A stretch of DNA of 64,000 nt from Carcharhinus amblyrhynchos (taxonomy: Eukaryota): assembly GCA_965287045.1 (NCBI GenBank), contig OZ336882.1, positions 73,780,001-73,844,000 of the forward strand, written 5' to 3'. Position 1 is the first letter of the stretch. Each line of letters starts with the position of its first letter. Of this stretch, positions 5,850 through 55,511 are shown piece after piece. The notes beneath the pieces were generated by a model. That model was given only the letters and a program-made list of their open reading frames with translations, ran no database searches and was not told the DNA's origin. The translations under genes were made by a program, and so were the position numbers.

Positions 5850-5851
5850 GA

Positions 5852-10086: not shown

Positions 10087-10156
10087 CAGGAACACCAATA
10101 GCTGCTAGAATTGGATAGTAAATCTCTTTTATCAACAGGATAATAGGTTTCCCCAT
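10087..10156 (-). CDS. GPR139/GPR142-like GPCR, gene 1, exon 1
   Basis: ATG at 10156, MGKPIILLIKEIYYPILAAIGVP, then G|GTGAGT donor; 122-bp intron; homologous to exon 1 of genes 2 and 3. Confidence 0.92.
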
Positions 10157-10210: not shown

Positions 10211-10261
10211 TTTATATATTCATCAATCCCCCAGGTAGTCAATTAGTGGAAGTCATCATTA
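10211..10261 (-). promoter_or_regulatory. Gene 1 proximal promoter: homeodomain sites, O/E-like site, TATA
   Basis: TAATGA 10261-10256, TAATTG 10245-10240, TCCCCCAGG on the + strand 10227-10235, TATAAA 10216-10211. Confidence 0.6.
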
Positions 10262-10699
10262 TCTTTAGTTATAGTCCTCTAACAAATAGATGTATGTAAT
10301 TGTTTAGCTCCTGCTGTTTGATTAAGAGAGTGCATTAACATTTTTTATTGCATATTTAAATAACAACGACAACAAAAATATGATAATATGTTGTGTTAGA
10401 TTACGAGCGGAAGGTAAACTTTACATTGTATAGTTAAACTTGCACTTTTGTTTATTTTGAGTAAATATATTTTGTTCATACTACTTACAGAAGTACCTCA
10501 TGAAGCACTGCAGCATGAAAAGTACAGATAGATCTTTTGATAGTAATTTGCTGTAACAATCTTACTCAAGATGAATTTGTTTCCTCAGAAGTGATAATAC
10601 TAATGACACTATAGTTCATCTCCAATTTGAGTGTTTTGCTAAATCTACACTGGAGTGGAGTTCGTCAGATTTGTAACTAATAACTTATTTATAAATCTG

Positions 10700-11010
10700 G
10701 ATGATTTGTTGAGCTAGAGAATGATATGGCCAAACTATTTGAGAGATTTGAATGTAAGCATACGGGTTTTAATATCGAGGCATTGCCAGGCCAGTAGCCA
10801 GTGTGGGTCAGCAAACACGGGGCTGATTGATGAACTGGACTTAGTTGAGGTGAAGTTCAAGGAAGCAGAATTTTGGATGGGCACTGATATATGTAAGGAG
10901 GAAGATGGCCAGATGGTCATTGGAATAGTCAAGTCTAGACTAAACCAACACATTGATGAGGGTTTCGGGAACAAATGAGTTGTGGAAGGATCAGACTTGG
11001 ACAATGCTTA
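10700..11010 (-). mobile_element. Ancient L2-like LINE fragment
   Basis: Homologous to 31350-31660 and 53330-53660 (GGAATAGTCAAGTCTAGA...GATGAGGGTTTC); minus strand reads SLDLTIPMT...IQNSA. Confidence 0.55.
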
Positions 11011-11019
11011 GAATGGGGA

Positions 11020-11632
11020 AGTATGGTTATTAATCTGATAACATTCAGTCTGTCTGTCTAAGATCATCCAGTTAGTCGGGGTTGTAGGGAGTGAAACAGA
11101 TGTCATGCTAGTCATCATTGTTTAATATTAAGATTGCTACTTTATCTGTAGTTCTGCAACATAGTTCCACTTGGGACATTTCACATTTCATTGCGATCAG
11201 AGCTGAACAAATGCCCCAGTCTGAGACAAAGGACTGACACCATTTTATAGCAGAAATTTCAGTTGGATCTTTTCCAAAAGGATATATGCTATTCCAGGAT
11301 ACATTAGTTTTAAGCATTCCCGACACTTGTTTCACTGAGAAGGATAAAGAATCAGTGAACATATCGTAGTGTCACAGTTTTCTGTTGTTCCGTTCCTGAC
11401 TCTCCAGTTCGCTATCTGTTAGTGAGGACTCGGTCACTCCTGTCGTCCATAATTCTGCTCAACTCCTGGATTTTAACACTCCGTGAACTGACAGCTGATG
11501 ATTCAAATTCCAATGCCAGGTTCCTGGCGAGTTCTCAGATGGCCTGTGCTTCGAGTGGGGACGATTCAATCATGATTATAGATTGTATTCAGTTCCATTC
11601 GGGACGTGATTCTTTGCATCTTGTAGTTGCAT
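11020..11632. repeat. Low-copy duplicated block, copy 1 (paralog at 31830-32462)
   Basis: Shares GGATTTTAAC...TGAACTGAC..CTGATGATTCAA..TCCAAT..CAGGTTCCTG, TTAATATTA.GATTG and the same L2 junction with copy 2. Confidence 0.8.
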
Positions 11633-12009
11633 CTGTCTAAATCAGGGATAGTTAGCACTGCTTTGTCAGAGCAAGGTCATGCCTAACAAATGTGTTTTAG
11701 TTTTTTGAGCATGTAACCAAGTGTATGGATGAGAGTAGTATGGTTGTTGTAGTTTACACGGATTTTAGCAAAGCCTTTGACAAATCCCACATGGGAGACT
11801 TATTAAAAAGACTAATGCACATGGGATACAGAGTGCCCTGATAAGGCACATCCATAATTGGCATATCAGTAGGAGACAGAGGCTGGTGACGGATGGCTGC
11901 TTTAGTGACTGGAGTCCAGTGACCAGGAGTGATCAGTGCTGGGACCCCATTGTTTGTCATTTATATAAATTACATAGATGACTATGTGGGGGATAGGATC
12001 AGTAATTAT

Positions 12010-12601
12010 ACCCCTTCCCCCCACCCCATGCTTGCCAGGTTCCCAGGCTGCGGCTTGTGCTCCATCTTGTGAACAAGGCTGCCTCAGTGGTTTCTTCATC
12101 GTTATCTCAAGACCGCAATCGTCCCACATCTTGACACCTATGGTTTGATTAGCAATTAGCTAACATACAGGCCATCACAAATAAGTTAACTGGCATACAA
12201 GGCAATGGGGCTGGTATAACAATTTTATGTTCGTACCTAACTCTATAGCATATAATATATCAGTACATAATACATAAATAGTACATAATAAATATATATG
12301 AAGGCATGCATGTAAGCTCCACTATGTTAAACAGAAGTCCACAATATTAAAGCCACAAAAATAGATACTAGCTGGGTCAGCCACATTCCTGAACACAGTT
12401 AGCTGGGAAAATCATAAACTTGTGTGCAGCAGGGACAGTTACTTTCTTATCTGTCTGGGATACATGAAAACAAGTCTTTCATCTGTCTGGGATATATGAA
12501 AACAAGTCTTACATCTGTCTGAGATACACAAAAACAATTCTCAATATTCTTTTTACAAATCTCTAAGTATTACAGAGTCCATTAACCCATCCCCTACTTC
12601 A
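12010..12601. mobile_element. Partial LTR related to the solo LTR at 61050-61697; contains a 32-bp x3 tandem repeat (12449-12542)
   Basis: Ends CATTAACCCATCCCCTACTTCA versus CATTAACCCTCCTCCTACTTCA at 61697; unit ATCTGTCTGGGATACATGAAAACAAGTCTTTC. Confidence 0.5.
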
Positions 12602-12845
12602 ATAATAAATCAAATCAAATTAAATATATCAATAAGATGGTCAAATGGACAAATAAGTGGCAGATGGAACTTTACCCTGAAAAGTGCGAGGTGATGTATT
12701 TTGGGAGGAGGAGCTTGACAAGGAAGTATACAATGAAAGGTCTGATAATGGAAGGTTCCAAAGATCAAAGGGAACTTGATGTGTTTGTCCATGTATCTTT
12801 GGAGGTGAAAAAGGCAGGTTAATAGGATGGTGAAAAAGGCATATG

Positions 12846-14376
12846 CCTTGGTGATTATTTTCCAAACGTTGCTGGATTCCGGGGAAGTGCCGGAAGATTG
12901 GAAAACGGCTAATGTTACGCCATTGTTTAAGAAGGGTGGCAGGCAAAATGCGGGCAATTATAGGCCGGTTAGTTTAACGTCTGTTGCAGGAAAAATGTTA
13001 GAATCCGTGATCAAGGAGAAAATAGCGAGGCATCTTGAGGAGAATTGTTTGGTAGAGCAGACGCAGCACGGTTTCGTTAAGGGGAAGTCATGTCTGACGA
13101 ATTTATTGGAGTTCTATAAGGATGTGACTAGGGCGGTGGATAGAGGAGAGCCGGTGGATGTGGTCTTTCTTGATTTTCAGAAGGCGTTTGACAAGGTGCC
13201 TCACAAGAGGTTATTGCAGAAGGTCCGGGGGCATGGAGTTGGGGGTAGGGTGTTAGCGTGGATAGAGGATTGGCCGTCAAATAGGAGGCAGAGAGTGGGG
13301 GTCAATGGGTGCTATTCGGATTGGTGGTTGGTGACAGGTGGAGTGCCCCAGGGGTCGGTGCTGGGGCCTCAGCTATTCACCATTTATATAGATGATCTGG
13401 AGGAGGGAACTGAGTGTATGGTGTCGAAATTTGCCGATGACACCAAGATTGGTGGAATGGCAAATTGTGCGGAGGGTGTGGAGAGTCTGCAGAAGGATCT
13501 AGATAGGCTGGGCGAATGGGCCAGGAACTGGCAAATGGAATTTAATGTTGGCAAATGTGAGGTTGTCCACTTTGGTAGGAATAATGGTAGGAAGGACTAT
13601 TACTTACGTGGCGAAAAACTGCAGCGTGCGATGGTGCAGAGGGACCTCGGGGTCCTTGTGCATGAGTCGCAAAAACCCAGCCTGCAGGTGCAGCAGGTGG
13701 TCAGGAAGGCGAATGGGATGCTGGCCTTCATAGCGAGGGGGATTGAATATAAAAGTAGCGAGGGCTTGCTGCAGCTGTATAGGGCACTGGTGAGGCCACA
13801 GCTGGAGTACTGTGTGCAGTTTGGGTCGCCGCACTTACGCAAGGATATTTTGGCCTTGGAGGGAGTGCAGAGGAGGTTTACTAGGCTGATTCCGGAGTTG
13901 AGGGGGTTGAACTATGAGGAGAGGCTGAATAAACTAGGCTTGTACTTGTTAGAGTTTAGAGGAATGAGGGGAGATCTCATTGAGACGTATAAGATGTTGA
14001 ATGGGATGGATAGGATAGAGGTGGAGAGGCTCTTCACGCTCAGAAAGGACAGTAGGACTAGAGGGCACAGCTTCAGGATAAAGGGGGGGGGGGCGGTTTA
14101 GAACGGAGTTGAGGAGGAACTTCTTCACTCAAAGGGTGGTGAATCTCTGGAATTCTCTGCCCGTTGAAGTGGTGGAGGCTGCCCCGCTCAATATTTTTAA
14201 GATGCGGGTTGATAGGTTTTTGATAGGCAAGGGGATTAAGGGTTATGGGGAGAGGGCGGGAATGTGGAACTGAGCCACGACAGATCAGCCATGATCTTAT
14301 TGAATGGCGGGGCAGGCTCGAGGGGCTGGATGACCTACTCCTGCTCCTATTTTTTATGTTCTTGTGTTCTTATGTT
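12846..14376 (+). mobile_element. Young 5'-truncated CR1 LINE with a nearly intact RT domain
   Basis: ORF 12827-14101: [46 protein letters not shown]; frameshift in a G-run; CATATG direct repeat at 12840-12845 and 14377-14382. Confidence 0.97.
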
Positions 14377-15469
14377 CATATGATGCACTCACCTTTCATC
14401 AATTGGGGTATAGATTATAAAAGCAGAGAGGTCATGATGAAGTTGTATAGAACTTTGGTGAGGCCACAGCTGTAGTACGTCTGCTGTTCTGATCGTCACG
14501 TTATTGGGGGGACGTCAATGCACTGGAGGGGGTGCAGAGGGGATTTACTGAGGTGCTGCCTGGGATGGAACATTTAAGTAATGAAGATAGGTTGGATAGT
14601 CATAGGCTGTTTTTATTGGAACAGAGGAGACCTGATTGAAATGTTCAAGATTATAAGGGGGAATGATAGGCTGGATAAGGAGCAGCTGTTGTAGGGTTAG
14701 TTACGAGGGGATACAAGTGGGGGATGGGAGGTCTGGGGATGATTTGAGGAAAAACCTTTTTTACTCTGAATGTGCGGACAGTCTTGAATGCATTGCCTGC
14801 GAGGTTGGTGGATGCGGGATACCTCACATCCTTTTAAAAATTATCTGGATGTTTACTTGGCACACCATAACATTCAAAACTGTGGGCCTAGTGCTGGCAA
14901 GTGAGATAAGGTGGGCAGTTCAGGGCATTTCCTGCATCGGTATAGACTCGATGAGCCAAGGGGCCTCTTCAGTATTATAGTATTTTTAGATTATTTGCAA
15001 AATAATTTTGGAAATGGCCCCCTTCTTCTTTTGTTTCTCCTTAACTCTGATACCTCCAAATAGCTCAGATTTACTAAAATCGATTACAAATACTATTGTT
15101 GACTATGCTGTCTTCACCCTTTCAGGCAGTGAATTCCAGCGAAAGAATCGACTGTTTCAAAACAACTCTTCCCAAATATTCCTTGCTATCTTAGGACGTT
15201 TCTATCTTCTGGTTTCCCCCTCTTCTCCCAATAGTAAAATAACATTATTTGAATTTACCTGAGCATGCCTTCAGCATTTTGAACTGCAACAGCAAGCCTC
15301 ACTTAACTTCCTCTACTAGAAGTAAAACACTCCAGCTTCCCATACTTCCCACATAATTGTATCTCTTGAAGTATTGTAATAAATCTCATCTGCACTGTCT
15401 CTAGCATCTTGTCATATTTCCTAAAGTATGATGTCTAGAATGTGTGATAATACTCCAGCTGGGCCAGCA

Positions 15470-15995
15470 TGTGTGCAGGAAGTGGCTGCAGATGCAGCTC
15501 CTGAAAGCCGAGGTTCCAATATGGAGCAGTGGTTGGGGACAATACGGAGCGTCCGTGAAGCTGACGGAATTGTGGGATGCACATACAAACAGTTGGTAAT
15601 ACCACAAGCTCAGAAACCACGCACAGAAAGCGAATGGTTGACAAACAGGCAGAGCAAAAGGGCAATGCAGGCAGTGCAGGAAACCCTTGTGGCCATTCCA
15701 CTGAGGACAGACACATCACTTTGAATATTGTTGGGGGCAATGGCCTCATTAGAAAGCTGTGATAGCCCAACTTTTGAACCACAGTCAGCTCTACTGCACA
15801 GGAGAGAAGGATAAAGTGTGTGAACGCAACAGCTACAGGGAATCGAACTATAAGGGGAATTGACGGTCATTACTGTGGTGGCAAACGAGACTCTCGGATG
15901 CTATGTTGGCTCCCTGGTACTAGGGTCAAAGATTCTCAGAGCGGTACAAGGGCATTCAGAGGATAAGCGTGAATAGCCAGTCATTGTTGTACACA
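15470..15995 (+). mobile_element. CR1 ORF1 (coiled-coil / SGNH-esterase) remnant
   Basis: EQWLGTIRSVREADGIV and RGIDGHYCGGKRDSRMLCWLPGTRVKD. Confidence 0.7.
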
Positions 15996-15997
15996 TT

Positions 15998-17585
15998 CAA
16001 GAACAAAGAACAAAGAAAAGCACAACATAGGGACAGGCCCTTCGTTGCTCCAAGCTTATGTCGATCACGATTCCCTAACTTAAACAAAAACCTTCTGTTC
16101 TTACTCAGTCCATGTCCCTCTATTCCCTCCCTAATCATGTACCCACCCGGATGCCACTCCAATGTTACTAATGTGTCTGCTTCCACAACTTTCTCTGGCA
16201 ACGTGTTCCAGGCACCAACCACTCCCTGCATGAAAAACTTACCCCGAATATCTCCCTTAAACTTCCCCCCGCCTCACCTTGAATCTTGTCCCTTGCATTT
16301 TACACTATCCACCCTGTCTATGCCTCTGATAATTTTGTAGACCTCTGCAAGGTATCCCCTCGGCCTCCGTGTTCCCAGTGACCACAATCCTAATTTATTC
16401 AACCTCCCCTCATTGCCAAAACCCTTGAGACCAGGCAACATCTTGCTGAACCTTATTTGCACTCTCTCCAAAGTTTCTACGTCTTTCTGTAGTGCGGTGA
16501 CCAGATCTACACACAATATTCCAAACGTGGCCTGACTAAGGTTTTATATAGCCGCAGCATGATTTTCCAACTCTTGTACTCAGTGCCCCGTCCAATGAAG
16601 GCAAGAATGTCATATGCCTTCTTAATCACCTTGGCCATCTGCATTGCCATGCTTATGGAAAATTGGGCCTGCATGCGCAGATCATTCTGTATGTCATCGT
16701 TCCTAAGGATTCTGCCAATTGCAGTATAATTCACATCTAAATTTGATCTTCCAAATTGCATCAGATCTCAATTTTCGGGATTAAATTCTATCTGCCATTT
16801 CTGAGTCCAAGTTTCCAATTTATCTATATCATGTTATATTCTCTGACAATCTCTGGCATTATCTACAACTCCACAAATCTTCATGTCATCCACAAACTTA
16901 CTATTCAGGCACCCATTCTTCCTCCAAATCATGTATATATACTACAAACAATAGAAGTCTCAGCACTGATCCCTGCGAGCGCCAGTAGTTACAGATCTCC
17001 ATTCTGAAAAACACCCTTCCATTGCTACAGAGTCTTCTATTACCGAACCATTTCTGCATCCATCCAGCTAGCCCAACCTGAATCTCATGTAATTTTAGAT
17101 TTTGCACCAATGCACTATACGGTGCTTGTCAAACGCCTTACTCTAGTCCATACAGACTACATGCATAACCCTTCATCAATTGTCTGATTACCTCGTTGAA
17201 AAAACTCAATCAGTTTGATAGGACATGATCTTCCCTGTGCAAAACCATGCTGCCCGTCACTAATTAGTGTTTTTTTCTAAGTATGCATATACACTGTCCC
17301 TCAGTATCTTCTCCAAAAGCTTTCCCACCACTGAAGTCAGGCTCCCATTTGATAATTTCCTGGATTATCTCTGCTCCATTTCTGAAGCAAGGGAACAGCA
17401 TTGGCTATTCTCCATTCCTAGGTAACCTCTGCTGTGGCCAAAGAGGATGTGATAATATCTATTAAGTCCCTCACTACTTTTTATTTAATCTTGCCTCCTG
17501 CAGTAACCTGGGATAGATCTCGTGCATCATCGGGGGCTTGTGTATCTTAATGCAATTTAGATACTCAACACTTCCTTCTTCGAAA
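15998..17585 (-). mobile_element. CR1 LINE, degenerate RT and 3' tail
   Basis: KKAYDILAFIGRGTEYKS...LVRPRLEYCV; tail AAGAACAAAGAACAAAG on the + strand at 15998. Confidence 0.9.
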
Positions 17586-19082
17586 TAACTATGCCAATGA
17601 CGTAGCTAAAAAAAAATGAGGTCCAAAAGTTGAATATCAGGAGTTAGAATGTAAATTGAAAAGCAGAACATCAAAATTAGTGAATTCAGGATTAACACCT
17701 ATGCCACGTGTTAGTCAAGGTAGCAATTCTAGGATATATAAAAATATTAGGATATGTCATCTGTTGCAGATGCATCAATATCGCAATAAAACAAAAAGAA
17801 TTTTTTTCACTTTAACCGGGTGCTCGATTTTGGGTTTTTTTTTCGTGCAGAGTTTGTAACATCTGATCACCTGGTGGCAGTCAGGATATAACAATGGACT
17901 GCAGACCACCACAACTTCCTCCCACAGCTCACACGCCCAGGGACCACATAATACTGAAGCAAAATTAATGTTGTGTGCTAGTTTTCACCCACAGATTTAT
18001 ACCACTTTCCAGAATTTTTCCATGCTTTTTGACTAATACATTATTATCCTTGTTTCGTAGCAACTTTCACAGGCAAACTTCACAGCAGCAGGCTTCTACA
18101 GATAACTATGATTATAGTTTCAGATCATACTGTTGCAGTAATATGATCTGTGTGATATTCATTGATCAGTGTGCAAGAAAGATGGACATTACTGAAGTTT
18201 TAATATCTCAAAGCAGAAAACGCTCACAGGCTCTACACATGCAGGCCCCAGGCAAATAGTCAATTCGATCCATAGCTCACAACATGAACATACTGGCCGG
18301 ATTTTACCAGCACACTCTCCACTGTCCTCGCCGGAATCGCACAACCCTCGGGCAGATGTGCCGGTAAAATTACACCTAAAGAATTGAAAGTAGCAAGAGG
18401 AATATGTGGCCCAAGCCTTCAGTTATATTCCGCCACTTAAATTAACAGCCTCTTTCATTACAATTCGTCACCTTATTTGTAATTAAATCTTTTTTTTTAA
18501 TTCAGAAACAAAGCAGGAATCTGAAAACAGTAGGGGCAGAACAATGGAGAGGGATAGAGATATTGGAAGACAGAAACGAGAGAGAAAGAACTAAAGAGAG
18601 AGGCAGTTGCTTCATTGTTCAGTCAATATCAGCTTACAAAACACAATCTCAGAAACATTTACAGGCTTCTGGGGAATGTACGGAGTGCGAGGCTAATTCG
18701 TTGTTTTTATCAAAGAGATAATGCAAGCATGATGGACCGAATGACCTCCTGTGTTGTAAGATTTGGCCACCTTTCCCTTTACATGGTTATATGTCATGGA
18801 ACAATGAATTGTTAAATTTATTATATATTCACAGTAATCATTTAAAGTGGCAGAATCTGAGTAACCATTAGAATGTGATGAGACTCCACTGTATCTCGGA
18901 TTACGATGACCAAAATACTGTAAATAAGGGACAGGTCAAGCTGAGTAATGTAATGGCAATGCCTAGCAAGGGACAATTTCAATCATTACTAAGGAAAACT
19001 CTGTATTGGAAGGAAAAACTGTGACTGCAACATTGTTGCAGGGAAAGCAGTAAAAACAATGGCTAAAAACAATTTTTAGCAG

Positions 19083-19160
19083 ATACTAGAATCATAAACC
19101 AAAAGAGAAAATGCTGGAAAATCTCAGCAGGTCTGATAGCATCTGCAAGGAGAGAAACAA
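19083..19160 (-). mobile_element. Penelope-like terminal repeat fragment (second family)
   Basis: AGAAAATGCTGGAAAATCTCAGCAGGTCTGATAGCATCTG; also at 22042, 28817, 40912 and, reversed, ~63550. Confidence 0.6.
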
Positions 19161-19644
19161 TGCCTGGCAAACACGCAGCGATTAAAATAAGAGATCCTTG
19201 AGAGACGGGTGTAGGAATAACACAGATATCTCAGAGGATTATAGATTGGAGCAGATTAAAGTTATGGGATTACCATTTGATCAGGAGGACGTCGGCACAA
19301 TGTGCTCGAGACCTACCGTGTCAGAATGATTTTTGCGAGGGCAAATTAGTGCTGCCAAGCCTCCAGGTTTGGCTTGGAACCTCGAGGGATTGTAAATCAA
19401 TTTCAAAACATTGCTATGTGCAAATCTGGAAAACATGCATTCAGGATATTAAAATGTTGTTTAAATTTTTAAAAAATCTCTTTTTCAGTCATAAAAAATA
19501 TTGAAAATTGGGAGTGAAAACCTAAGGTCATTAATTTTGGTAACGGATCTTTTAACTTTCCAATTGACGTAGGAAGTTACCATGATGCATGATGTATGTG
19601 TTTGGCCAATTAGCGGATGGAGCAGGTAACAAATGGTAAAGTCA

Positions 19645-19830
19645 TAGAATCCCTCCGGTGCAGAAGGAAACTACTTGGTGCATCAGCCGGCACCAAAAAC
19701 AATGCCACTAGTATCCTATCTCCATATTCCCATATATTTAATCTGCTAACCCCATTGACACTAAGGGGAAATTTACCATGAACAATAAACCTGACCTGCA
19801 CATTTTTGATAATGTGATGAAACCTCAAGG
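19645..19830 (-). mobile_element. HE1-type V-SINE, partial
   Basis: CATAGAATCCCT tail and V-domain sequence GGGGAAATTTACCATG...ACCTGCACATT. Confidence 0.65.
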
Positions 19831-20255
19831 AATACAGTTGAATGGTTGAATTTTGCAATTTGACTCAGGAATCCCTTCATATCATCGTGGAAGATGTAAG
19901 TGCCCATTCGATAGCCAAATCACATAAAAGCTATCATAGAGCACAAGTCTATGCCAATTTCTAAACAATCCATCAACTATTTTCCAGAAGTACTCATAAA
20001 TACTTTATACATTTAGTACAGGATTGACAGCAAATTGTGGAATTCCAGATTGTGTCAAAGATTAATGTCAATTGGATGAACAAATGGATGGAAGGGCTCA
20101 AATTAATATTTCATTTTAATAATATTTTAATAATACAGTAAGACCGGTTGCCTGAAAGTCAAGGTTTCACTTTCCATTTGTATGTGTAAGTACATTATTT
20201 TTCCAATATTAGCGTTGGCTTTGTATTTTAATCCAATGTGTATTTAAATGATGTT

Positions 20256-20566
20256 TGGTACGGTGGCATTGTGGTTAGCACCGCTGCCTCACACTGCTAG
20301 TGCCCCAAATTCAATTCCATTCTTAGGGCACTGTCTGTGGAGTTTGCATTTTTTTTCTCTGTCTGCTTGGGTTTCCATCAAGTGATCCAGTTTCCTCCCA
20401 CAGTCCAAAGATTTGCGAGTTGAGTGGGTTGGCCATGATAAATTGTCCCTTCGTGCTGGGGGATTAGTAGGGTAAATATGGGGTTAATGAAATAGGGAAG
20501 GATCGTTGTTGGTGCAGGTTCAATGGACCTGATAACCACCTTCTGCACTGTAGGGTTCCATGATTG
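20256..20566 (+). mobile_element. HE1-type V-SINE directly upstream of the gene 2 promoter
   Basis: tRNA-like head GGTGGCATTGTGGTTAGCACCGCTGCCTCAC, V-domain CCTCCCACAGTCCAAAGAT, CR1-type tail. Confidence 0.85.
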
Positions 20567-20570
20567 ATGT

Positions 20571-20618
20571 TAATGATTACAGGTTTGATTCCCTAGAGTC
20601 TTGCTGCATGTATAAATA
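20571..20618 (+). promoter_or_regulatory. Gene 2 proximal promoter: homeodomain site, O/E-like site, TATA
   Basis: TAATGA 20571-20576, TCCCTAGAG 20590-20598, TATAAATA 20611-20618, ATG at 20686. Confidence 0.6.
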
Positions 20619-20685
20619 TAGATTCCCTTTCATTGTCTCATCAGAGTCTTTCAACTCCTACAGAAGCCTTTGACTCTCGGAGAAA

Positions 20686-20755
20686 ATGGGGAAACCAACT
20701 ATTCTGCTAGTGAAAGAGATTTACTACCCTATTCTCGCAGCTGTGGGTTTTCCTG
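20686..20755 (+). CDS. GPR139/GPR142-like GPCR, gene 2, exon 1
   Basis: MGKPTILLVKEIYYPILAAVGFP, then G|GTGAGT donor at 20756; 369-bp intron. Confidence 0.92.
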
Positions 20756-21124: not shown

Positions 21125-22071
21125 CAAACGTATTAACAATCGGTCTTGTGTCCCAGGGAAACTGCGGCCTATCCAAATGTATCTCTACTTATATGGTAGC
21201 TATGGCAACAGCAGATCTCCTGGTCATTATCAACAATATAATGATATATTATATATTCAGCTATCATTTCCCGTTTTCATTCTTGTCGCAGACGCCTGTC
21301 TGCAGGACCAATATATATATGACTGCTGTCACGATCGATTTGTCTATTTGGTTCACAGTATGCTTCACATTTGACCGATGTGTAGCAATTTGCTCCCAGA
21401 AGGTTAAAACAAAGTACTGCACCAAAACTGTTGCAACCACCATTTTAACTGCCGCTTCCGTCCTGATTTTGTTAAAGAACATCCCGGTTTTGTTTGCATA
21501 TGAACCTCAGCACATAATTAACAAGGTGCAATGGGGCTGCCTGTCAAGCGTGACTTTTTTTTCTTCATCTCCGGGTGTAGCGTACGTCTGGTTTCATAGC
21601 GCCTGGGCAGTATTGGTCCCTTGTACTTTAATTATTTTGTTTAATTCTTTCACTGTCCGACGCATATTTGTAGCCAATAGAAGGCGCAGAGGCCTCCTGA
21701 GTCACAGGAGTGGAAATCACGACGATTCTCAGAAAGACAACAGAAGGAAATCCATCATTTTATTATTCACCATATCTATCACGTTTATATTGCTCTGGTT
21801 CACACATGCCGTGACTCTAGTAACTACCAGACTGACAAACAGTCTTTATTATCGAGGCGATCGCACTACCCCTGCATATATCGCCACTGAAATCGGAGCT
21901 TTCCTAAAGTTGTTGAGTTGCTTTCAAAATCCATGTATTTATGTAGCGACACAGAGCAAATTCAGAGAGGAGTTGAGAAATGTGATGGAATATCCATGGA
22001 GACCAATTTCCAAATTTGTTGAAAAATACAGATCTAAGAATAAAAACAAAATACTGGAATCTGAAACATAA
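21125..22071 (+). CDS. GPR139/GPR142-like GPCR, gene 2, exon 2 (338 aa total)
   Basis: Acceptor TCTCTCTTACAG (AG 21123-21124), phase 1; ANVLTIGLVSQGNCGLS, YMVAMATADL, TPVC, FTFDRC, QWGC, NPCIY. Confidence 0.93.
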
Positions 22072-22206: not shown

Positions 22207-22581
22207 AAGGAATCAATTTTAACAAATCGCCCTTCAAAATCTGAATTATCGCCTATTTCATCCATCTTAGAACGCCTTAATCTGAAAATTGGTAAAGGTT
22301 ATGTTCCATTACAACCGCTCTTTTGATGCAGGCATTATTTTTCATTTCCCAATTTTTTTTTTAAGTAAAGATAACACACTCTCCTACATGTAGTCATTTC
22401 AAACTCAAGAATCAAAAAATAAATGGTGGTGGCCTTCAGCGGCTGTGTCGCGCATAACAGAAGAATCCACTGCATATACTAATATCGAGCAGGTCAACTT
22501 AAGATCGCGAGAAAGTTCATCTGGTGCTGAAGCAATATACGGGTTAGTGGTGGCCGACCTTAATAATTCTCCCGGTACTTT

Positions 22582-23039
22582 GATGAGGAGAGGCTGAATA
22601 AACTAGGTTTGTACTCGTTAGAGTTTAGAAGAATGAGGGGAGATCTTATTGAGATGTATAAGGTGATGAATGGGATGGATAGGATAGAGGTGGAGAGACT
22701 CTTCCCGCTCAGAAAAGATAGTAGGACTAGGGGGCACAGCCTCAAGATAAAGGGGGGGCGGTTTAGAACGGAGTTGAGGAGGAACTTCTTCACTCAAAGG
22801 GTGGTGAATCTCTGGAATTCTCTGCCCGTTGAAGTGATGGAGGCTACCTCGCTAAATATTTTTAAGACGCGGGTTGATGGGTTTTTGATAAGAGAGGGGA
22901 TTAAGGGTTATGGGGAGAGGGCGGGAATGTGGAACTGAGCCACGACAGATCAGTCATGATCTTATTGAATGGCGGGGCAGGCTCAAAGGGCTAGATGGCC
23001 TACTCCTGCTCCTATTTCTTATGTTCTTATGTTCTTATG
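22582..23039 (+). mobile_element. Young CR1 3' end
   Basis: ORF 22609-22938 and TTCTTATG x3 tail; same subfamily as X/Y. Confidence 0.95.
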
Positions 23040-25429: not shown

Positions 25430-26215
25430 GAGCATGAAGGAGCAGAACAATATCAAGGAAATCCAAACAGGGAATGAGCCATACTAGACTTGGGATTGGG
25501 GAATGAGCCAGGTCAGATGATTGATGATTTAGTGGTGGAGCATTTTGGGTTTAGCGAACATAAATCCATAAGATTTCGGGTAGTCAGGGATGAGGACAAG
25601 AGTGACTCTTGGGTAGATGCGCTTAAGTGGACGAGGGCCAGATACATACAAATTAGACAGGAACAGGGAAATGTGGATTGTGAACGGCCATCTAGTGACA
25701 AATCTGACATATAGGAGGCTTTTAAAGTTGATTTATGCGCAGGACAGACATGTCCCCGTAAAACTGAAGAGTGGCCTTGGAACCGTGGATGACAAGGAAA
25801 ATTGTAAGCGTATTCAAAAGGATAAAACATGCGATAGGTATAGGCATCTAAGAAGTGACGAAGCCTTGATAAGTATAATGAAATTTGAAAGGAACTCAAA
25901 CGCAATAGTAGGAGGGTTAATTGGGGCTGTGAAATGTCTTTAGCAATATGGGTCTAGGAGAATCCAAATGCGTCTTATGCATATACGAAGAGCAAGATGG
26001 TAAGAAGAGAAATAATAGGCCCAGTCAAGGTCAATGGAAAGACGTTATGCGTGGGAGCACAAGTAGGCGAGTTCCTTAATGAACATTTTTTATTGGCATT
26101 CACCAAGGAGAAGACATGACGGATGCTAACGTCAGGGATAGGTGTGTGAACGCTTCAGAGAATGTCAATTCTCAGAGTCAGAGAATGTCAGAGAATGCCA
26201 AGGAGGACGTGTTGA
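25430..26215 (+). mobile_element. Degenerate CR1 (endonuclease/linker region)
   Basis: LGNEPGQM...EHFGFSEHKSIRF. Confidence 0.75.
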
Positions 26216-26510
26216 ATCATGGAATCCCTACAGTGTACCAACTCTCCGACACAGAATCTTTTCCAGTCACTCTCCCCTGCCCTGTATGTGTACTCCATAG
26301 ATTCACCATGGCTAATCCACCTAACCTACTCATCTTGGAACATTAATTTACTGTGGCCAATCCACCTAGGCTGCCTACTTTTGAAATGAAGGAAGAACTG
26401 GATCATCCGGAGGAAACTCACACAGACAATGGATAATGAGTAAGCTCCACGCAAACAGTCACAAAATTTCGGAATTGAACGCCAGTTTCTGGCGCTGTGA
26501 GGCAGCAGTG
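26216..26510 (-). mobile_element. HE1-type V-SINE
   Basis: CCGGAGGAAACTCACACAGACA...CTGGCGCTGTGAGGCAGCAGTG. Confidence 0.8.
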
Positions 26511-27430
26511 TCGACTTCTTGTATAGATTAAAGCCCCTGCCATTTTCATTGACACACTTACAAGCACTCTAGCAAATTCAGTCCTGACTAGCACGGTTGT
26601 AAACCATCCTGCTTGTAGATGTCTCCTCTCAGCCAGAAAATAAGCCAATACTCCAGTAATATGAAAACCTCCCCCGACGCCCTTACTTCAGCCATGTATT
26701 CATCTGATATATGCTGTGATTTCTCCTCTGTACGGCAGTGACATTTTGACTAATCCTGAAATCACTACGTTCTAGGTGCTACTTTTCATCTGACTTCCTA
26801 ATTCACTATGTTCTGCTTTTAGTACATAATGCATATATTTTACATATGTCATTTATACCGACTTGTACCACTACAATGGGATGTTCGCCCTCACCTTTAA
26901 GAATGTCATGTAACCGCCCTGAGACGTGCTTGACCTTAGCAGCAGTGAGTCAACATACCTTCCTTGCCACCACAGTGATACCTAACAGTTGGCCAACAAT
27001 TAAATTCCCCAAAGCTGTTGTATTTCCATAACCTTTACTCCTCTCCTGTGCAGAAGACCCAACTGTTGTGCCACAAACTGGTCTGTGCCTGCCCTTCCAA
27101 GAGAGGCTATTTCACTCAACGGTATGTAAAACTGTATATGTGTTTTCCAGGGGACTCGCCCCAGGAGATACATGAACTGCCTGCTTACTCGTCTTCTTTT
27201 GCTTGGTCACCCATTCCTTTTCCAGCTTCTGGAGGCTGCCTACGACCCTATAAGTGCTATCCTGTCAATCCCCATCTCGTGGATGCTCCACAGTGTCTGA
27301 GCCGCCGATCCGGATCCAAATCCCGGGCTTCCAGTAGTGCACATAATCTGGCACCTGGGAATGCAGTGTTCCCTGCTGCCCACGTCGCGCATGCGGAGCA
27401 TACCAGAGATTTGAGCACTTCTGCCATGGC
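26510..27430 (-). mobile_element. Degenerate CR1 ORF1 / start of ORF2
   Basis: LVCSACATW (ORF1 zinc-finger-like) and esterase-region remnants. Confidence 0.55.
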
Positions 27431-28949
27431 TAACACTTTTTTAGTTAAGATCTTTGAATGATGCTTAATTGCATTTGATATGAAATTTTCTCTCGTGCTC
27501 GTTACAAACCAAAGATAGTCTTTTACATAACTAACCCACAAACAATAAGCAAGATGTTAGAAAATAATTATGCATCCCTACCCACCACTTACCAATCAGC
27601 TCCATCTCTTGCAGCCTCTATTCCTGCAGCAGGACGCCATCATCCTCTGAAGCTTACGATGTTAGAAAGCCAACAAAACAAAATCACATCTCCCTCTTTG
27701 TACCAAATTCCCTCTGGGCTCTACAATCCCAGATAATCAAACTCGCTTTGGTTGTGCTTCACCCAAACTTTACTCTCTCCCAAAACTCGTGTCCAAATCT
27801 CAGTGATTATATTCTGAGAGGAAGGGATGTATTTTCCTTGCTTCAATATGTGAACAAATTAACACGTTCACAGTTCAGAGCACCGTACGTACCAGTTTGC
27901 AACTGTTCTAGAAAAGCTCAGTTCTGACAATAGACACCTAACTTGGTTACTTTAATTGACTCGACCCATATGTCCCTGGGCATGCAGGTTGTTTCTACAA
28001 TGTTCTGAAACATCCTGCATCAGATGCTAAGTTAAAATGGCCTTTTGCTTCATGTTAGTGCATGGTTTTGTTGGTATTAAAACCAAAGTAAACATAGACA
28101 TTGCAAAATTGTGCATTCAGTTTAAATCTGTGTATTGGTGATTCAGAATAGAATCATATCGAATCCGCACGTGGGAGAGCAGGAATGCTGATCCATTTTA
28201 GTCACCTTATCATCATAGGACAGCCTCCTCCTGCCGGGGACTAATCAGTGAGTCTTTGCTGTGCCGGATGCAGTTCATAGATATCCTGCCTTCAATACGG
28301 AGGTCAGAATTGCAAACAGTAATCAAGACACAATTTCATCTAAGTCTTCTGTACTTGTAGTAAGACTTGTCTGGTCTTGAGCACTAATCCTTCTGCTATG
28401 AAGGCCAACATACGATCTGTCCACTGGAAAAGAGATGTATCAAGATGAGGTTATGAACGTTTGAATGCAAAAGCAACGTGAAGATATAATGAAAGAAACG
28501 GGACAAAATCAAACCAGCAAAACAGCAAGTTGTTTGTTGAAGAGAGTGCGAAGCATTCATACCGAAATTCAAGGAAGAAAACACGTTAGCTCATACAGCA
28601 GTTTAGAAATAATGAAATAGATCTTTCCACCTATAGCTTGTATACCTTGAATGGTAAACTGCTTGTTGAAGTGAGTGCAGACGATTTAACATTTCTCTGT
28701 AGACATGAGCATTTCATTAACCTGAGGCCAAACAGTAAGAAATTCCCTTTGTCTGGAATTTATCAGCGTCGCCTGACCCACGAAGTTCCGCTGACACTTG
28801 AAAATATATTTGATCGAAGCAAATTACTGCAAATTCTGGAATCTGAAACCAAAAGAGAAAACAAAAATGCTGGGGAGAAAAATCAGCAGGTCTAGCAGTA
28901 TCTGTAAGGAGAGAACAGAACTGACTGTTCAAGTCCTTTGTCAAATTAG

Positions 28950-30410
28950 CCACAGTACAATAGAGGGGAAATTTCTGGAATGCGCATGGGATGATTTTCT
29001 GGAGCAATATGTTGCCGAACCAACAGGGAAACAGGTCATCTTGGACTAGACGTTGAGCAATGAGAAATGATTAGTTGTCAATCTAGTTGTGAAAGAACCC
29101 TTGGGAACAAGTGACTATAATATGGTAGAATTCCTTGTCAAAGTCAAAGTGACGTAGTTCATTCTAAGACCAGGGTCCTGAATCTCAACAAAGATAATTA
29201 TGATTGTATGAGGCATGAGTTGACCATGACGGACCGGGAAACATTGCTGAAAAGAAAGCCAGTAAGCAGGCATTTAAAGAAGGAATAGGTGAACTCCAGA
29301 AGTTGCTCATTCCTGTTTGGTAGAAGAGTGGCCAGGGAATTGCAGCCAAACTATGGCTTACAAGGGAAATTAGAGATAATATCAGATTCAAGGAAGAAGC
29401 ATACGACTTGGCAAGAACAGGCAATAGCCCTGAGGATTGGGAGCAGTTTAATTTCAGCAAGTTGGACCAAGGGATGGGATGGGAAAATGGAGTATGAAAG
29501 CAAGTTAGCAGGGAACATAAATGTCGAATATAAAAGTTTCTATAGATATGTGAAGAGAAAAATATTGACAAAAACGAATGTAACCCCTTACAGCCAGAGA
29601 TGGGACAATTCAGAATGGGGGATAAAGAAATGTCTAAGTAATTACATGTGTGTATTGTTTCAGTCTTCACCAAGAAAGGCATGAATAATGTACTAGAAGT
29701 GCTGAAGGAAACATATTTTATTGAGGAGCTGAAAGAAATTAACATTAGAAGAGAAATGGTTTGCAGAAATTGATGGGACTGAAGGTGGATGCGTCTCCAG
29801 AATGCTTAAGGGTGTGGCCCTATAAATAATAGTTATACTTTAAAAGAACTTTAACTTTTAACTTTTAAACAACCTTCACGGCACACGACAGCACAGAGTA
29901 GCTTAGCAGGGATTGATAGCCAAGTTCCGCACACATGAAGACGGCCTCATCCAGGATCTTGGATTCATGTCACACTATTTGTAACCTCCATAACTTGCTT
30001 GGGCTTGCAACATCTCACTTACTGTCCTGTCTGGAGACAATACTCATCTCTTTAACCTATAATAAATATTATCTCCACTCACATTGTCTGCACTTTTAAG
30101 ACTTAACTAGCTGTAAAGACTTGCATTCTAATCGGTGTTCTGTAAACTAACTGTGTGCCTTTACATGTCTGTTTGTGATCAGAACTCCCCACTCACCTGA
30201 CGAAGGAGCAGCGCTCTGAAATCTAGTCGTGTTTGTTGCCAAATAAACTTGTTGGACTTTAACCTGGTGTTATGAGACTTCTTACTGTGTTCAAAAAGGG
30301 AGGCAAAGAGAAAGCAGGGTGCTATAGTTCAGTGACCCTAACGTCAGTATTGGGGAAGTTGCTCAAGTCGATTATCAAGGATTTCATAACACGGCATTTG
30401 GAAGACATAA
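28950..30410 (+). mobile_element. Degenerate CR1 interrupted by a Penelope fragment
   Basis: FLEQYVAEPTGKQVILD, EYESKLAGNI, FKKGGKEKAGCYSSVTLTSVLGK. Confidence 0.85.
29866..30290 (+). mobile_element. Penelope-like element 3' end: GIY-YIG C-terminus plus pLTR with a degenerate hammerhead core (30191-30230)
   Basis: LIAKFRTHEDGLIQDLGFMSHY; CTGACGA-A-GGAGC-AGC-GCTCT-GAAA. Confidence 0.85.
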
Positions 30411-30801
30411 CCGGCCATCCCTTAGGGTTTTCGCACAAGATTGCTGATTACTGTTTCTCGTTAGACACTACCTAGTTTTAGAATGTTTTGTTTTTTATCT
30501 GATGGTTCTTCAACGCATCGTTAAGAAAAAATCCCGAATACGCTCTATGAATACCTCCTAAGCCTATTCGCTCAGAGGGTATTAGGAATTTGGAATTCAC
30601 TGCTTCAGCGGATGGTGCAGGTAAGGACCCTCATAATATTTTTAAAAATATATATTTAGATGCACTCTTATAAAGCCAACTGATACAAGAGCCAATTGCT
30701 TGAAAATGGGGTGAGATAGGTGGGTGGTTCGCCTTTGAGTGGCACAGACGTGATAGTGAAGGGCCTTTTACTGTGTTGTGCAAATCCATGATTATATAAA
30801 A

Positions 30802-30890
30802 TGCGATGACCAGGAATTGAGCCTGTGTCAACTACTTGAAAGACAGCTGTGCACAGCACTGAAGTTATGCTTACCACTATATTGCAATGA
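30802..30890 (-). pseudogene. Degenerate tRNA-Gly(TCC)-derived pseudogene with an internal ~18-nt duplication
   Basis: TATAGTGGTAAGCATAACT[dup]GTCTTTCAAGTAGTTGACACAGGCTCAATTCCTGGTCATCGCA followed by TTTT aligns to vertebrate tRNA-Gly(TCC). Confidence 0.7.
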
Positions 30891-30939
30891 CTAAGTAAAA
30901 GGAACATTAAAATACTGAAATGATTCAAGTCAGTTGAAA

Positions 30940-31660
30940 CTTGAAACAAAGCAGTGTTGATGCTGAGCCAATGAATTTATTAGGTAAGGTGACAATAGCA
31001 TGTCTACAAAAGTAGATTGGAAGGAGCCACTTAAGGGGGAAAGGGTGTAAGACAAGTGGAGAGGTTTAGGAAAGGAGTCAACATTTTTTGGCCAAGTTGA
31101 ACGCACGGTAGTCAACCTGAAGAGATAAAAATTGGGAATACAGAAGATGGCAGAGCAGTAGAGAACTGGAAGATTTGTTGGGCTGAAGGAGGTTACCAAT
31201 CTGAATCTGGTTACAATAGGGGTACCATACGCATACACACGGGTCAAGGTAGGTGTAGGAAAATGCTTTGTTAAGTTGGCGGCGCGGGCTCGTTGGGCCG
31301 AAGGGCCTGTTTCCCGTGCTGGGGTTGTTCTTTGTTCTTTGTTTGTTCTTTGTTCTACAGAGGCAAGGAAGAAATTATAAAGATATTTGAAAGAAAGGCT
31401 GAGGATTTTAAAATGGATGCATTGCTATGCCAAGAGCAAGTGTAGGTAGTCTAACAAAGGGGTGATTTGTGAACCGGACTTGGTTGAGGTGAAGTTGAAG
31501 GCAGCAGGATTTTGGATGAGTGCAGGTATATGCAGGTTGAAAGATGGGAGGGCGCTGGAGAACACTGGAATAGTCAAGTATGGAGTGAAGGACGGCGTGG
31601 ATAATGGTATCTACAGCAAATGAGCTGAGGCAGGGCTGGAATTGGATGACGTTTAGAATG
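30940..31660 (-). mobile_element. Ancient L2-like fragment, with short CR1 tails inserted at ~31200-31355 and 31661-31830
   Basis: Homology to 10700-11010; tails contain GGGCCGAAGGGCCTGTTTCC. Confidence 0.55.
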
Positions 31661-31829
31661 TGTCTTTTGAAATGTATTTAGATTGTTACATGGTTACGAT
31701 AGGTATAGTGGGATATGGGCCAAATGCGGGCAACTGGGATTAGCTTAGGGATTAAAAGGGCGGCATGGATAAATTGGGCCGAAGGGCCTGTTTCCATGCT
31801 GTAAATCTCTGTGACTCTATGACTGTATG

Positions 31830-32462
31830 TAGAAGTATAGTGTATTTATGTGATAACGTTTCATCTGTCTATACGATATCAGACACTTCCGTCAGAAGTT
31901 CTCTATTAAATACTTGTAAAATATAAGTTAATATTAGGATTGTTACCCTATCTGTCTCTCTGGAATACTGCATCAATATGAGATCTTTCATAGATTACTG
32001 TAATGAGAAGCTAAACGTTGAGGCCAAGGGCAGAAACCTTTTAAATCTGAGATTTGCCCATTTAAGAGCCTCGTTTGGAACAAATTTTGGCAGAATATTT
32101 GGAAGCATAACAGGGCATTAATATCAATCATTCATGTCCCTGGTTTCACTGAGGGGTACGAAGTATCTGTGAACAGAGTGGAAGTGTCACAATTACTCTG
32201 TTGCTGACTCTCCTGCTCTCGGTCTGCGACTGAGGACTCTGTCTTCTACGAAATGGGTTTTCCCGATTCCGTCCCATTCCCGGATTTTAACGTTGGATGA
32301 ACTGACGTCTGATGATTCAAGCTCCAATATCAGGTTCCTGCTGAGATCGCAGCTGGACTGTGGTCGAGTGGGAAGGATTCAACAATGATTAAACAATGAG
32401 CTGAGTTTGGTAACCGTTTCACACCTGACACAGCGGAATCGATGTGTCTCTTCCTAGTTACA
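31830..32462. repeat. Low-copy duplicated block, copy 2 (paralog at 11020-11632)
   Basis: Visual alignment with copy 1, same orientation. Confidence 0.8.
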
Positions 32463-32989
32463 GTGAAACCCAGAACGAGCGAGAACACGGAGGCTTTCTG
32501 CACTTTCCACATAACTGTAGTTCCCCCATCTATTCTACAAAATCCATTCTGCACTACTCTTGTAACTTGTCAGCTTTCCTATAATATGTGTCCGAATAGG
32601 GCACTACTCCTTCAGCTGGACTCTGAAAGGATCAGCATACCTTCCCTGATTTTGTATTGCAATCCCGTTTCTGATTTCTAACTCAGTGTGCGTTAGGAAG
32701 TTTGAAACGAACACACTGATTATTGTTGTCCACCAAATTGGTCATTCTTATAGATTCACCCAATCACTGACACAGAATAACCATCTGCACTCGCTCCCTG
32801 TTACATAGCAACACATTGAAAAGTCCATTTCCAGTTCTTCCGTTCCTATTGTAAAGGAATAACACCCGAACATCTACACCATTTTGCTTTACCATCTGAC
32901 AGATTGAGGGAATCAGGTCCAAGATAACCTGTAAGAAAGCCAAATTACAACAAATAACAATTTGTTTACTCACCCAGCAGTTAATTATT

Positions 32990-34845
32990 TTACAGACCTC
33001 TCTAAGGTCACCCCTCAGCCTCCTACGCTCCAGAGAGAAAAGTCCCAGTCTGTTCAGCTCTCCTTATAACTGAGTCCAACAAGTCCCGATAGCATCCTAT
33101 AAATCTTTTGTGTACTCTTTCTAGGTTACCAATATCATTCTATAATAGCGTGACCAGGATTGCACACAGTGTTCTAAGTGTGGCCTTACCAATGTCCTGT
33201 ACTAATTCAACAAGATGTCCCTGTATTCAGTGTTCTGACCCATGAAACCAAGCATGCCAAATGCCATCTTCCCCACTCAATCCACCTGTGACTTCACTTT
33301 CATGGAGCTATGAACATGTACACCACCCGCCTCCCGAACCCCCGCCGCCCCCACCGAACTCTTTGCTCTGTAACTCTCCCCAGTGTCCTTCCATTACCTG
33401 AATAAGTCCTGCCCTGGTTCAATCACCTCACATTTTTCTAAATTAGACTCCATCTGCCATTCTTCAGCCCATTGGCCCAATTGGTCAAGATCCCGTTGCA
33501 ATTGGAGACAACTTTCTTCACTATCCATTATGCCATCAATCTTGGTGTCATCTGCAAACTTAATAACCATACCCCCTACATTTTCATCCATATCCTTAAT
33601 ATAAATGACAAATAACAATGGACCCAGCACATATCCCTGAGGCATACTGCCGGCCACAGGTCTCCAGTTTGAAAAAAAACTCTCTACCACCACCTTCTGG
33701 CTTCTCTCAGGAAGCCAATTTTGTATCCATTTAGATACCTCACTCTGGATCCCGTATGATTTAACTTTTTTGCAACAGACTACCATGCGGTACCTTGTCA
33801 AAGGCCTTTCTAAAGTCCTTCTGCACTGCCCTCATCTACCTTCCTGGTTACCCCTTCGAAAAACTCAATCAAATATGTGAGACATGATTTTCCACTCACA
33901 AAGCCATGCTGAGTGTCCTAACGAGTCATTACATCTTTAAATGCCTGTAGATTCTGTCTCTCAAAATACCGTGCAACAACTTAACCACCACAGACATGAG
34001 ACTTACTGGCCTGCTGTTCCCAGGCTTTTCCCTGCAGTCCTTTTTTTAAACAAAGGCACAACATTTGCCACTCTTCAATGTTCAGGCACCTCACCCATGA
34101 CTATCGATGATTCAAATATCTCGGCTACGGGACCCCGCAAACTCCTCCCTAGCCTCCTTCAACGTCCTGGGATACACTTCATCAGTTCCCAGAAATTTAT
34201 CCACCTTGATGCGCTTTACGACTTCCAGCACCTCCTTCTCTGTAATATGTACACTCCTCAATACATCACTATTTATTTCCCCAATTTCCCAAACATCCAT
34301 GCTTTTCTCAACATTAAATATTGATGAGAAATATCCATTTAAGATGTCACCCATCGCTTGTGGATCCGCACATTTTGCCATCCTGATTTCTCTCTTAACT
34401 CTACTCCTACACCCTTCCAGAGATTCACTTGATCTCAGCTGCTTATGCATGTCATGTGTCTCTTTCTTCTTCTTGATCAGGGCCTCAATATCCCGGGTCA
34501 TTCAGGGTTCCTGACTTCAGCCAGCCTTGCCCTTCACTCTAAGAGGAATGTGTTTACCCTGAACCCTAGTTAACACACTTCTGAAAGCATGCCACTTACC
34601 AAACATCCTCTGCTTTCCCAAAGACTTCTCCAATTAACTTTTGAAAGTTCCTGCTTCATACCGTCAAAATAGGCCTTACCCCAATTTAGAATTTTTACTT
34701 CTGGGCCAGGTCTATTATACACCATAGCTATCTTAAAACTAATAGAATTATGGTCACTGGTCCCAAAATGATACCTCATTAACATTTTTGTCACTGACCA
34801 TTCTTTTTTCCCAAGAGGACATCAAGTTTTGCTCCCTCTCCAGTC
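32990..34845 (-). mobile_element. CR1 LINE, EN-RT fragments
   Basis: [31 protein letters not shown]. Confidence 0.9.
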
Positions 34846-34969
34846 ATTATCATTTAGCCTAATTTAGCCCCCCTACATAAGCAATAATCCATTTTATTCG
34901 TTTAGCTGAACTTCCAAAATTTAAAGATGGCAGATACATCTGAGAATATAATCACTCTACTCACTTTCT

Positions 34970-35023
34970 TAATGAATGATGTTGCAACTTCGATATCCCC
35001 GAGGTGATTTCACAGGATATAAA
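34970..35023 (+). promoter_or_regulatory. Gene 3 proximal promoter: homeodomain site, O/E-like site, TATA
   Basis: TAATGA 34970-34975, TCCCCGAGG 34996-35004, TATAAA 35018-35023, ATG at 35110. Confidence 0.6.
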
Positions 35024-55509: not shown

Positions 55510-55511
55510 TT

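Follow-up and report, generated by a model that had tools for sequence, protein, structure and literature searches.

Among the closest described counterparts of the promoters reported here are those of the olfactory receptor (OR) genes of mouse, which are marked by Olf-1/EBF (O/E), homeodomain and TATA sites (PMC3247239, PMC12547500); the enhancers of these mouse genes, the Greek Islands, are marked by an adjacent Lhx2-Ebf composite that is rarer in promoters (PMC5608512). In cartilaginous fishes, 6–13 OR, 3–5 TAAR, 2–4 V1R and 8–43 V2R genes have been counted, the olfactory neurons of sharks are reported to be microvillous throughout, V2Rs being their dominant receptors and ORs not being expressed, and olfaction has been explained as sensitivity bought with discrimination (PMC10116579). 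G protein-coupled receptor (GPCR) paucity has also been claimed for these fishes (PMC8455134). Here we analyzed a stretch of 64,000 nucleotides (nt) from the shark Carcharhinus amblyrhynchos (GenBank assembly GCA_965287045.1, contig OZ336882.1, positions 73,780,001 to 73,844,000 of the forward strand), hereafter the window, in which three receptor genes (genes 1–3) each follow a compact promoter with an O/E-like site and a TATA box. By their sequences, the three genes belong to a group of class A GPCRs that is related to GPR139/142 and has expanded in elasmobranchs. This family has at least 1,400 copies in the genome, and we regard the family itself as the more important result: more than 1,400 diversified GPR139-like receptors that, judging from the sampled promoters, share an olfactory-type core promoter.

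Genes 1, 2 and 3 splice to full proteins of 336, 338 and 336 amino acids (aa), respectively, in agreement with an earlier note on this DNA that had called them intact. Their common layout consists of a short coding exon 1 (21–23 codons plus 1 nt), a phase-1 intron of 122 nt in gene 1, 369 nt in gene 2 and 2,744 nt in gene 3, and a long exon 2. Gene 1 lies on the reverse strand. Its TATA box (TATAAA, 10211..10216) stands 60 nt before the ATG, the coding part of exon 1 (10087..10156) holds 23 codons plus 1 nt and ends at a phase-1 GT donor, and exon 2 (9024..9964) completes a protein with a Pfam 7tm_1 match. The O/E(EBF)-like site of this gene (10227..10237, containing TCCCCCAGG at 10227–10235) starts 21 nt before the TATA box; it is preceded at a distance of 2 nt by TAATTG (10240..10245), then by a homeodomain-type TAATGA (10256..10261) and, about 70 nt before the TATA box, by a forkhead-type site TATTTGTT (10281..10288). 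Gene 2, on the forward strand, has TAATGA at 20571..20576, the O/E-like site TCCCTAGAG at 20590..20599 (21 nt before TATA), TATAAA at 20611..20616 (75 nt before the ATG) and, from splice reconstruction, the coding part of exon 1 at 20686..20755 and exon 2 at 21125..22071. Gene 3, also forward, has TAATGA at 34970..34975, a C/EBP-ATF-like site GATGTTGCAA at 34978..34987, the O/E-like site TCCCCGAGG at 34996..35007 (22 nt before TATA), TATAAA at 35018..35023 (92 nt before the ATG), 21 codons plus 1 nt of exon 1 at 35110..35173 and exon 2 at 37918..38864. Every motif that the earlier note had placed at these genes was found at its position and on its strand, and the O/E-like starts 21, 21 and 22 nt ahead of TATA fall in the range of 19–22 bp that it gave. 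Its remark that the flanks do not align also holds, with pairwise global promoter scores of 0, 1 and 3 for a shuffled null with median 2 and maximum 9. The forkhead-type and C/EBP-ATF-like sites had gone unnoticed.

To place these promoters within the family, 170 loci were sampled. Ninety of them came from exact matches to a donor pattern of exon 1, which occurs 135 times in the genome (0 for the control), and 80 from exon-2 similarity, the latter hand-picked for spread from 252 listed rows. A profile located 153 exon-1 ends, 151 of them distinct. An ATG 20–24 codons upstream and sufficient flank were present at 129 loci, and 22 were excluded for a long or missing N-terminus or a short flank. 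After similar promoters had been merged, 63 non-redundant ones remained, or 51 at a stricter cut; 52 of the 63 have a TATA-like anchor (39 an exact TATAAA), and the anchored counts below omit the remaining 11. Position windows were set after inspecting the data, and since the members also share ancestry, p-values overstate independence.

TATAAA occurred between −112 and −55 from the ATG in 39/63 promoters, compared with 0–2 in nine other 58-nt windows and 4 on the reverse strand. The palindrome TCCCNNGGGA, with up to two mismatches, started −25 to −17 from the TATA box in 24 of these 39, against 13 of 840 background TATAAA sites; shifted-window controls gave 1–2/39 in four windows, and a stricter non-redundant set retained it in 17/28. 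Among the anchored promoters the O/E-like palindrome was present in 34/52 (mean 0.9, maximum 4 in 300 dinucleotide shuffles), its starts peaking at −23 to −21, and the de novo motif of this position was TCYCMNWGGAGA. The O/E core TCCCyngrga, as published in Table 1 of PMC3247239, was matched with up to two mismatches in 20/28 promoters of clade A, which includes genes 1 and 2, and in 22/24 of clade B, which includes gene 3.

Further upstream, a TRTTTRY motif, which we take to be of forkhead type, was found in 23/52 anchored promoters (3.9 in shuffles), in a single orientation and peaking at −80 to −70. Between this site and the O/E-like site the two clades differ: TAATKR was present in 15/28 promoters of clade A vs 6/24 of clade B, and DRTGTTGCAA, presumably a C/EBP-ATF site and typical of clade B, in 15/24 of clade B vs 3/28 of clade A. 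An initiator-like YCA peaked at +28 to +33 from TATA, and the core start is predicted about 30 nt downstream of the TATA box. Transcription from a distant upstream exon, an alternative raised in the earlier note, is unlikely, as 0/63 promoters have a strong splice acceptor ahead of the ATG; the one in gene 1 is weak (score 5.7 vs a median of 19.6 for true acceptors). Two properties of OR-type promoters, proximal O/E enrichment and a TATA box with a predicted start about 30 nt downstream, are hence seen here. Taken together, the counts support a real, conserved core promoter as a common property of the family. A genome-wide search with the module alone returned 18 matches vs 12 for the control, of which 7 were family promoters, 3 of them outside the sample; with no genome-wide excess, the pattern is informative only by its concentration on family genes.

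The shark promoters resemble those of mouse ORs in being AT-rich, in their proximal O/E sites and TATA enrichment, in homeodomain sites in part of the promoters, and in belonging to a very large clustered GPCR family (PMC3247239, PMC12547500). Unlike in mouse, where a TATA-type site is given for 39% of promoters, the shark O/E-like site stands at a fixed distance of about 22 nt before the TATA box of most members, the module adds forkhead-type and C/EBP-ATF-like sites, and homeodomain sites are clade-restricted. The shark promoter also adjoins coding exon 1, an intron splits the coding region, and the proteins are not ORs. The OR-type promoter that the earlier note had attributed to the three genes thus stands family-wide in its TATA and O/E-like parts, but TAATGA and TAATTG are largely restricted to one clade and the receptors are not ORs. 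A likeness to the Greek Island composite was seen in clade A, where TAATKR lies 2 nt before the degenerate EBF-like palindrome in 8/33 promoters, including the TAATTG of gene 1 (0/30 in clade B); the shark composite is found in promoters, the mouse composite in enhancers (PMC5608512).

Within the same genome, the three ORs show no such module in the 1.4 kb read, and at least two have a splice acceptor just before the ATG, which makes them unsuitable as promoter controls. V2R/OlfC genes, the known olfactory receptors of sharks (PMC10116579), are likewise clustered, with a TATA box near the ATG (12/19) and proximal O/E-like sites (7/19 vs 1 distal; 6/13 vs 0/13 in the non-redundant set), but they are class C GPCRs with 8–43 genes per species and their promoters are not enriched in forkhead or C/EBP-like sites. 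GPR139 and GPR142, which are aromatic amino acid receptors, share with the family an identical intron in transmembrane segment 1 (TM1) and the same larger clade, and GPR139 is the best PDB match of the family; unlike the family they are single copy each, and no TATA box, hence no TATA/O-E module, was found in the 700 nt read upstream of them. The region upstream of GPR139 (locus L238) holds two TAATGA and one O/E-like site with two mismatches. A third single-copy GPR139-like gene matches the family in exon 1 and intron layout and, unlike it, is single copy and has no module within 420 nt of the ATG. Because the module is missing at these single-copy relatives, the lineage that expanded likely gained it, unless transcription of the relatives begins at a more distant upstream position.

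The identity of the factor on the palindrome was assessed by spacer and palindrome scoring, and NFI, STAT and BANP-type factors were rejected as its readers. Of the spacers compared, the 2 nt of EBF scored best, though not uniquely so, with 34/52 promoters, followed by 24, 29 and 28 for spacers of 1, 3 and 4 nt (about 2 in local shuffles). The closeness of the 3- and 4-nt spacers speaks for a real promoter in which a factor other than EBF, such as one of AP-2 type, reads the palindrome, as do an enriched AP-2-like pattern (29/52 vs 4.7) and the rarity of perfect EBF sites; the earlier note had itself warned of imperfect O/E matches, and perfect TCCCNNGGGA was indeed found in 0/39 promoters of the TATAAA set and 1/52 of the anchored set. 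A related version, in which the module tells little of the cell type and hitch-hikes with duplicates expressed in brain, testis or elsewhere, can point to GPR139 itself, a brain gene. We consider this explanation, in either version, quite improbable, since the outer TC..GA bases of TCYCMNWGGAGA suit EBF more than AP-2, and motifs that keep a fixed spacing while the flanks no longer align (in the 28-promoter set) need selection rather than hitch-hiking.

The size of the family was estimated with a 26-nt pattern from transmembrane segment 3 (TM3), which had 1,432 exact matches in the genome vs 1 for the reversed control. With a sensitivity of 65/83 sampled members, this suggests a total of about 1,800, a figure that takes in pseudogenes and whatever haplotig duplicates there are. 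For comparison, the same genome gave 3 strong matches to the OR model 7tm_4 among 20 listed, and about 37 clustered V2R-type matches of 52. Among the 80 loci chosen by exon-2 similarity, a choice biased to high scorers, exon 2 is open over 280 aa or more in 59. Over 741 pairs, identity was 34% in the hypervariable extracellular and pocket regions vs 62% in the conserved inner regions that face the G protein, and the ratio of nonsynonymous to synonymous substitution rates (dN/dS) for outer vs inner regions was 0.47 vs 0.32 in 21 close pairs and 0.40 vs 0.22 in 23 more distant pairs. These values point to genes that are functional and under purifying selection, with a ligand side that has diversified; dN/dS does not prove positive selection. 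A large, clustered birth-and-death family with a variable ligand side and purifying selection has the properties of a chemoreceptor repertoire, and an overlooked chemosensory receptor repertoire is the likely identity of the family.

Regarding its relationships, Pfam 7tm_1 was the sole match in 4/4 window proteins, and the best PDB match was GPR139 (E 1.7e-9). Membership of the OR family was rejected on two grounds: 7tm_4 was not matched in any of the four proteins and the tree places ORs at a great distance, and a phase-1 intron after codon 20–24 interrupts the coding region, which in ORs is intronless. That TM1 phase-1 intron is identical in the family, GPR139 and GPR142, and together with the tree placement it puts the family in a GPR139-like superclade. 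Within the tree the family is one clade (100), separate from a GPR139/142 clade, although a grouping of the two was not formally rejected (p-AU, approximately unbiased test, 0.055). Direct orthology to GPR139 or GPR142 was discarded, as the true single-copy orthologues sit elsewhere in the genome and the family forms its own clade (100/100). Among the best 120 of 2,003 and the best 120 of 195 homologues of two divergent members, all named ones were from sharks, rays and skates, mostly under the name 'probable GPR139', and no chimaera was among these listed matches.

The nearest relatives in the tree were the third single-copy GPR139-like gene together with a bichir lineage (96/94), followed by an amphioxus 'GPR139' (83/78). 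This third gene, one of non-mammalian jawed vertebrates, is conserved and apparently single-copy in sharks, bony fishes, amphibians and reptiles (for example coelacanth XP_005988539), with about one per species among the matches listed and one copy in this genome; its exon 1 has 24 codons, ending in the same terminal motif and the same intron as in the family. Orphans named 'GPR210A/B' have been placed near this region of the tree in gar, coelacanth and fishes (PMC6504862), and the third gene is possibly one of them. It lies on contig C22 at 47735232–47746000 (L282, L283) with an intron of about 9 kb, and family clusters flank it on the same contig at 43.7–44.1 and 49.3–49.4 Mb, a position that is possibly the ancestral locus. 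The cysteine at the start of TM3 and that of extracellular loop 2 are conserved in the family, and shark GPR139 and GPR142 are without both, a pattern that fits the family as a sister lineage and not a derivative of GPR139/142. Of four residues described for ligand binding in GPR139 (F3.33, H5.43, W6.48 and N7.38; PMC5430874), present in 5, 9, 36 and 2 of 39 members, respectively, only W6.48 is kept. The GPR139 Trp/Phe site is hence not retained, and Trp and Phe are not assumed to be ligands of the family.

We give about an even chance to the reading that this compact promoter, predicted to bind EBF, makes the family a chemoreceptor repertoire expressed in olfactory sensory neurons. From its distal end, the promoter has a forkhead-type site, then a homeodomain-type or C/EBP-ATF-like one, the O/E-like palindrome and the TATA box, with transcription probably starting about 30 nt after TATA, given the initiator-like peak and the lack of an acceptor ahead of the start codon. 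The palindrome would be occupied by an EBF dimer, two turns of the helix upstream of TBP, assisted perhaps by a LIM-homeodomain factor in clade A and by a basic leucine zipper (bZIP) factor in clade B. With its own promoter at each small gene, tandem duplicates would stay expressible, as in other olfactory receptor arrays. Because shark olfactory neurons are reported to be all microvillous, an olfactory role of the family would be in microvillous cells. The wider proposal is tentative, standing somewhat short of even: an independent elasmobranch olfactory receptor family, larger than the OR family of mouse, may have arisen from a GPR139-like orphan that gained an EBF/TATA promoter and then expanded to well beyond a thousand genes, and may now be the main repertoire of the shark nose. 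In that case it would resolve the paradox of sharks smelling keenly with no more than some dozens of receptors known.

Several observations weigh against the olfactory assignment or qualify the promoter evidence. EBF is active also in B cells, other neurons and stroma. TAATKR enrichment is modest (21/52 vs 8.7 shuffled; 26 vs 20 in upstream windows) and comes mostly from clade A. TAATGA, given by the earlier note for all three genes, occurs in 8/52 promoters, mostly of the gene 1/2 clade; the full triad with O/E and TATA is likewise confined to 8/52, which makes its occurrence in 3/3 genes of the window partly luck, and the TAATGA of gene 3 is probably incidental, being carried by none of its 8 closest paralog promoters. 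Eleven of the 63 promoters have no TATA-like anchor, and the module was present in only 2/22 excluded members, mostly those with long N-termini. Since a single ancestor gave rise to all copies, the counts measure conservation and not independent gains. V2R promoters show no fixed O/E–TATA spacing (0/12). The spacing of the Greek Island composite was not reproduced either, the shark gap being 2 nt (8/33; 1 nt in 0/33) and the mouse reference, a single Sfaktiria probe, 1 nt; homeodomain–EBF spacing has been shown to matter in the mouse composite (PMC5608512). The study of mouse OR promoters uses neither forkhead nor C/EBP terms in its main text (PMC3247239). No report of olfactory expression of these genes was found, though they are annotated in many shark genomes, and a catshark study shows no GPCR among the 50 top genes of a brain and olfactory library (PMC11979771), which is weak evidence because single receptors are rare transcripts. 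In four contig sets aligned to gene 3, the exon 1–exon 2 joint of gene 3 was not among the 15 joints listed of 101. One set, guessed to be RNA, held paralog fragments only, and in two DNA sets the orthologous gene 3 promoter was about 95–97% alike, too close to judge motif conservation.

The signature of a repertoire does not specify an organ, and the genes might instead encode chemoreceptors of other sensory cells, such as taste buds, solitary chemosensory or skin cells, ampullae of Lorenzini or gut sensors, under a code of EBF, forkhead and homeodomain or bZIP factors. The forkhead site is commoner than the homeodomain site and lies outside the OR promoter motifs described in the accessible texts, and V2R promoters are laid out differently, both of which suit such cells. 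We nevertheless consider this unlikely. An octamer is expected for POU2F3-dependent taste or tuft cells, and only 3/52 promoters have one; repertoires of more than 1,000 members are typical of noses, and O/E, homeodomain and TATA sites together form a documented olfactory grammar (PMC3247239, PMC12547500).

Expression in immune cells would make the family an expansion of B-lineage or granulocyte pattern sensors, comparable to those of FPR or MRGPR, controlled through EBF1, forkhead and C/EBP factors. EBF1 and forkhead are a B-cell pairing, which counts for a B-lineage role; a C/EBP-like site is present in 15/24 clade B promoters, pathogen sensing fits diversification of the ligand side equally, and spleen is reported as the top expression site of some shark ORs (PMC11979771). 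With a panel of 34 motifs, however, PU.1/ETS and RUNX matches were found in 3 of the 52 promoters each, as was the octamer, IRF in 2, NF-kB in 1 and the FOXO-type TGTTTAC in 0, and neither these nor GATA or STAT were clearly enriched; the panel did show enrichment of the E-box CAGSTG (11/52 vs 4.0). The TAATTG that abuts the O/E site in clade A is moreover a pairing of neuronal type. An immune role appears slightly less probable than one in other sensory cells, and somewhat more probable than a different reader of the palindrome.

Whatever the tissue, a single GPCR family with 1,432 copies or more in this genome, and with annotated relatives across sharks, rays and skates, contradicts the view that cartilaginous fishes are poor in GPCRs. 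If the olfactory assignment is correct, the genes would form a new vertebrate olfactory receptor family and would show that a receptor can enter the olfactory programme by acquiring an O/E–TATA promoter. Repertoires of GPCRs controlled by O/E promoters are known as a kind of system; this family and its promoter grammar appear to be new. The genes already stand in public annotations under the borrowed name 'probable GPR139'. The expansion is undescribed in the literature searched, mostly outside subscription papers, and term searches found no mention of it in a GPR139 review of 2025, a catshark sensory genome paper (PMC11979771), a whale shark paper (PMC8455134), PMC12294341 or PMC13113109.

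Some variation was observed among family members. The N-terminus is generally short, with a glycosylation sequon in 1/63 members. A subgroup (L003, L008, L009, L026–L028, L135, L142, L144, L159 and L160) has a long exon 1 and an extended N-terminus, which in L026–L028 holds repeated WNxT/S-type glycosylation units; this subgroup is mostly without the promoter module and may have a different expression site. At L055, L059, L062 and L064 (contig C13, 80.3–81.2 Mb) the splice donor after exon 1 is GC rather than GT. On contig C9, at 99.7–101.4 Mb, the genes of a family cluster alternate with those of another cluster, which is unrelated and encodes class A GPCRs with long loops.

Elsewhere in the window, a fourth family copy at 54667..55533 on the reverse strand is a pseudogene that consists of exon 2 only, split over two reading frames; neither its exon 1 nor a promoter module was found within the window. 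Long open reading frames resembling reverse transcriptase occur by eye in several near-identical copies at 3000–5900, 12600–14400 and 22500–22950, which we take to be remnants of CR1-type long interspersed nuclear elements. A high-copy interspersed repeat (20240..20565) is inserted just 5' of the gene 2 core promoter. In gene 2, as in the paralog L033, the repeat sits about 45–55 nt upstream of the TATA box and displaces the forkhead site that paralogs carry at this place.

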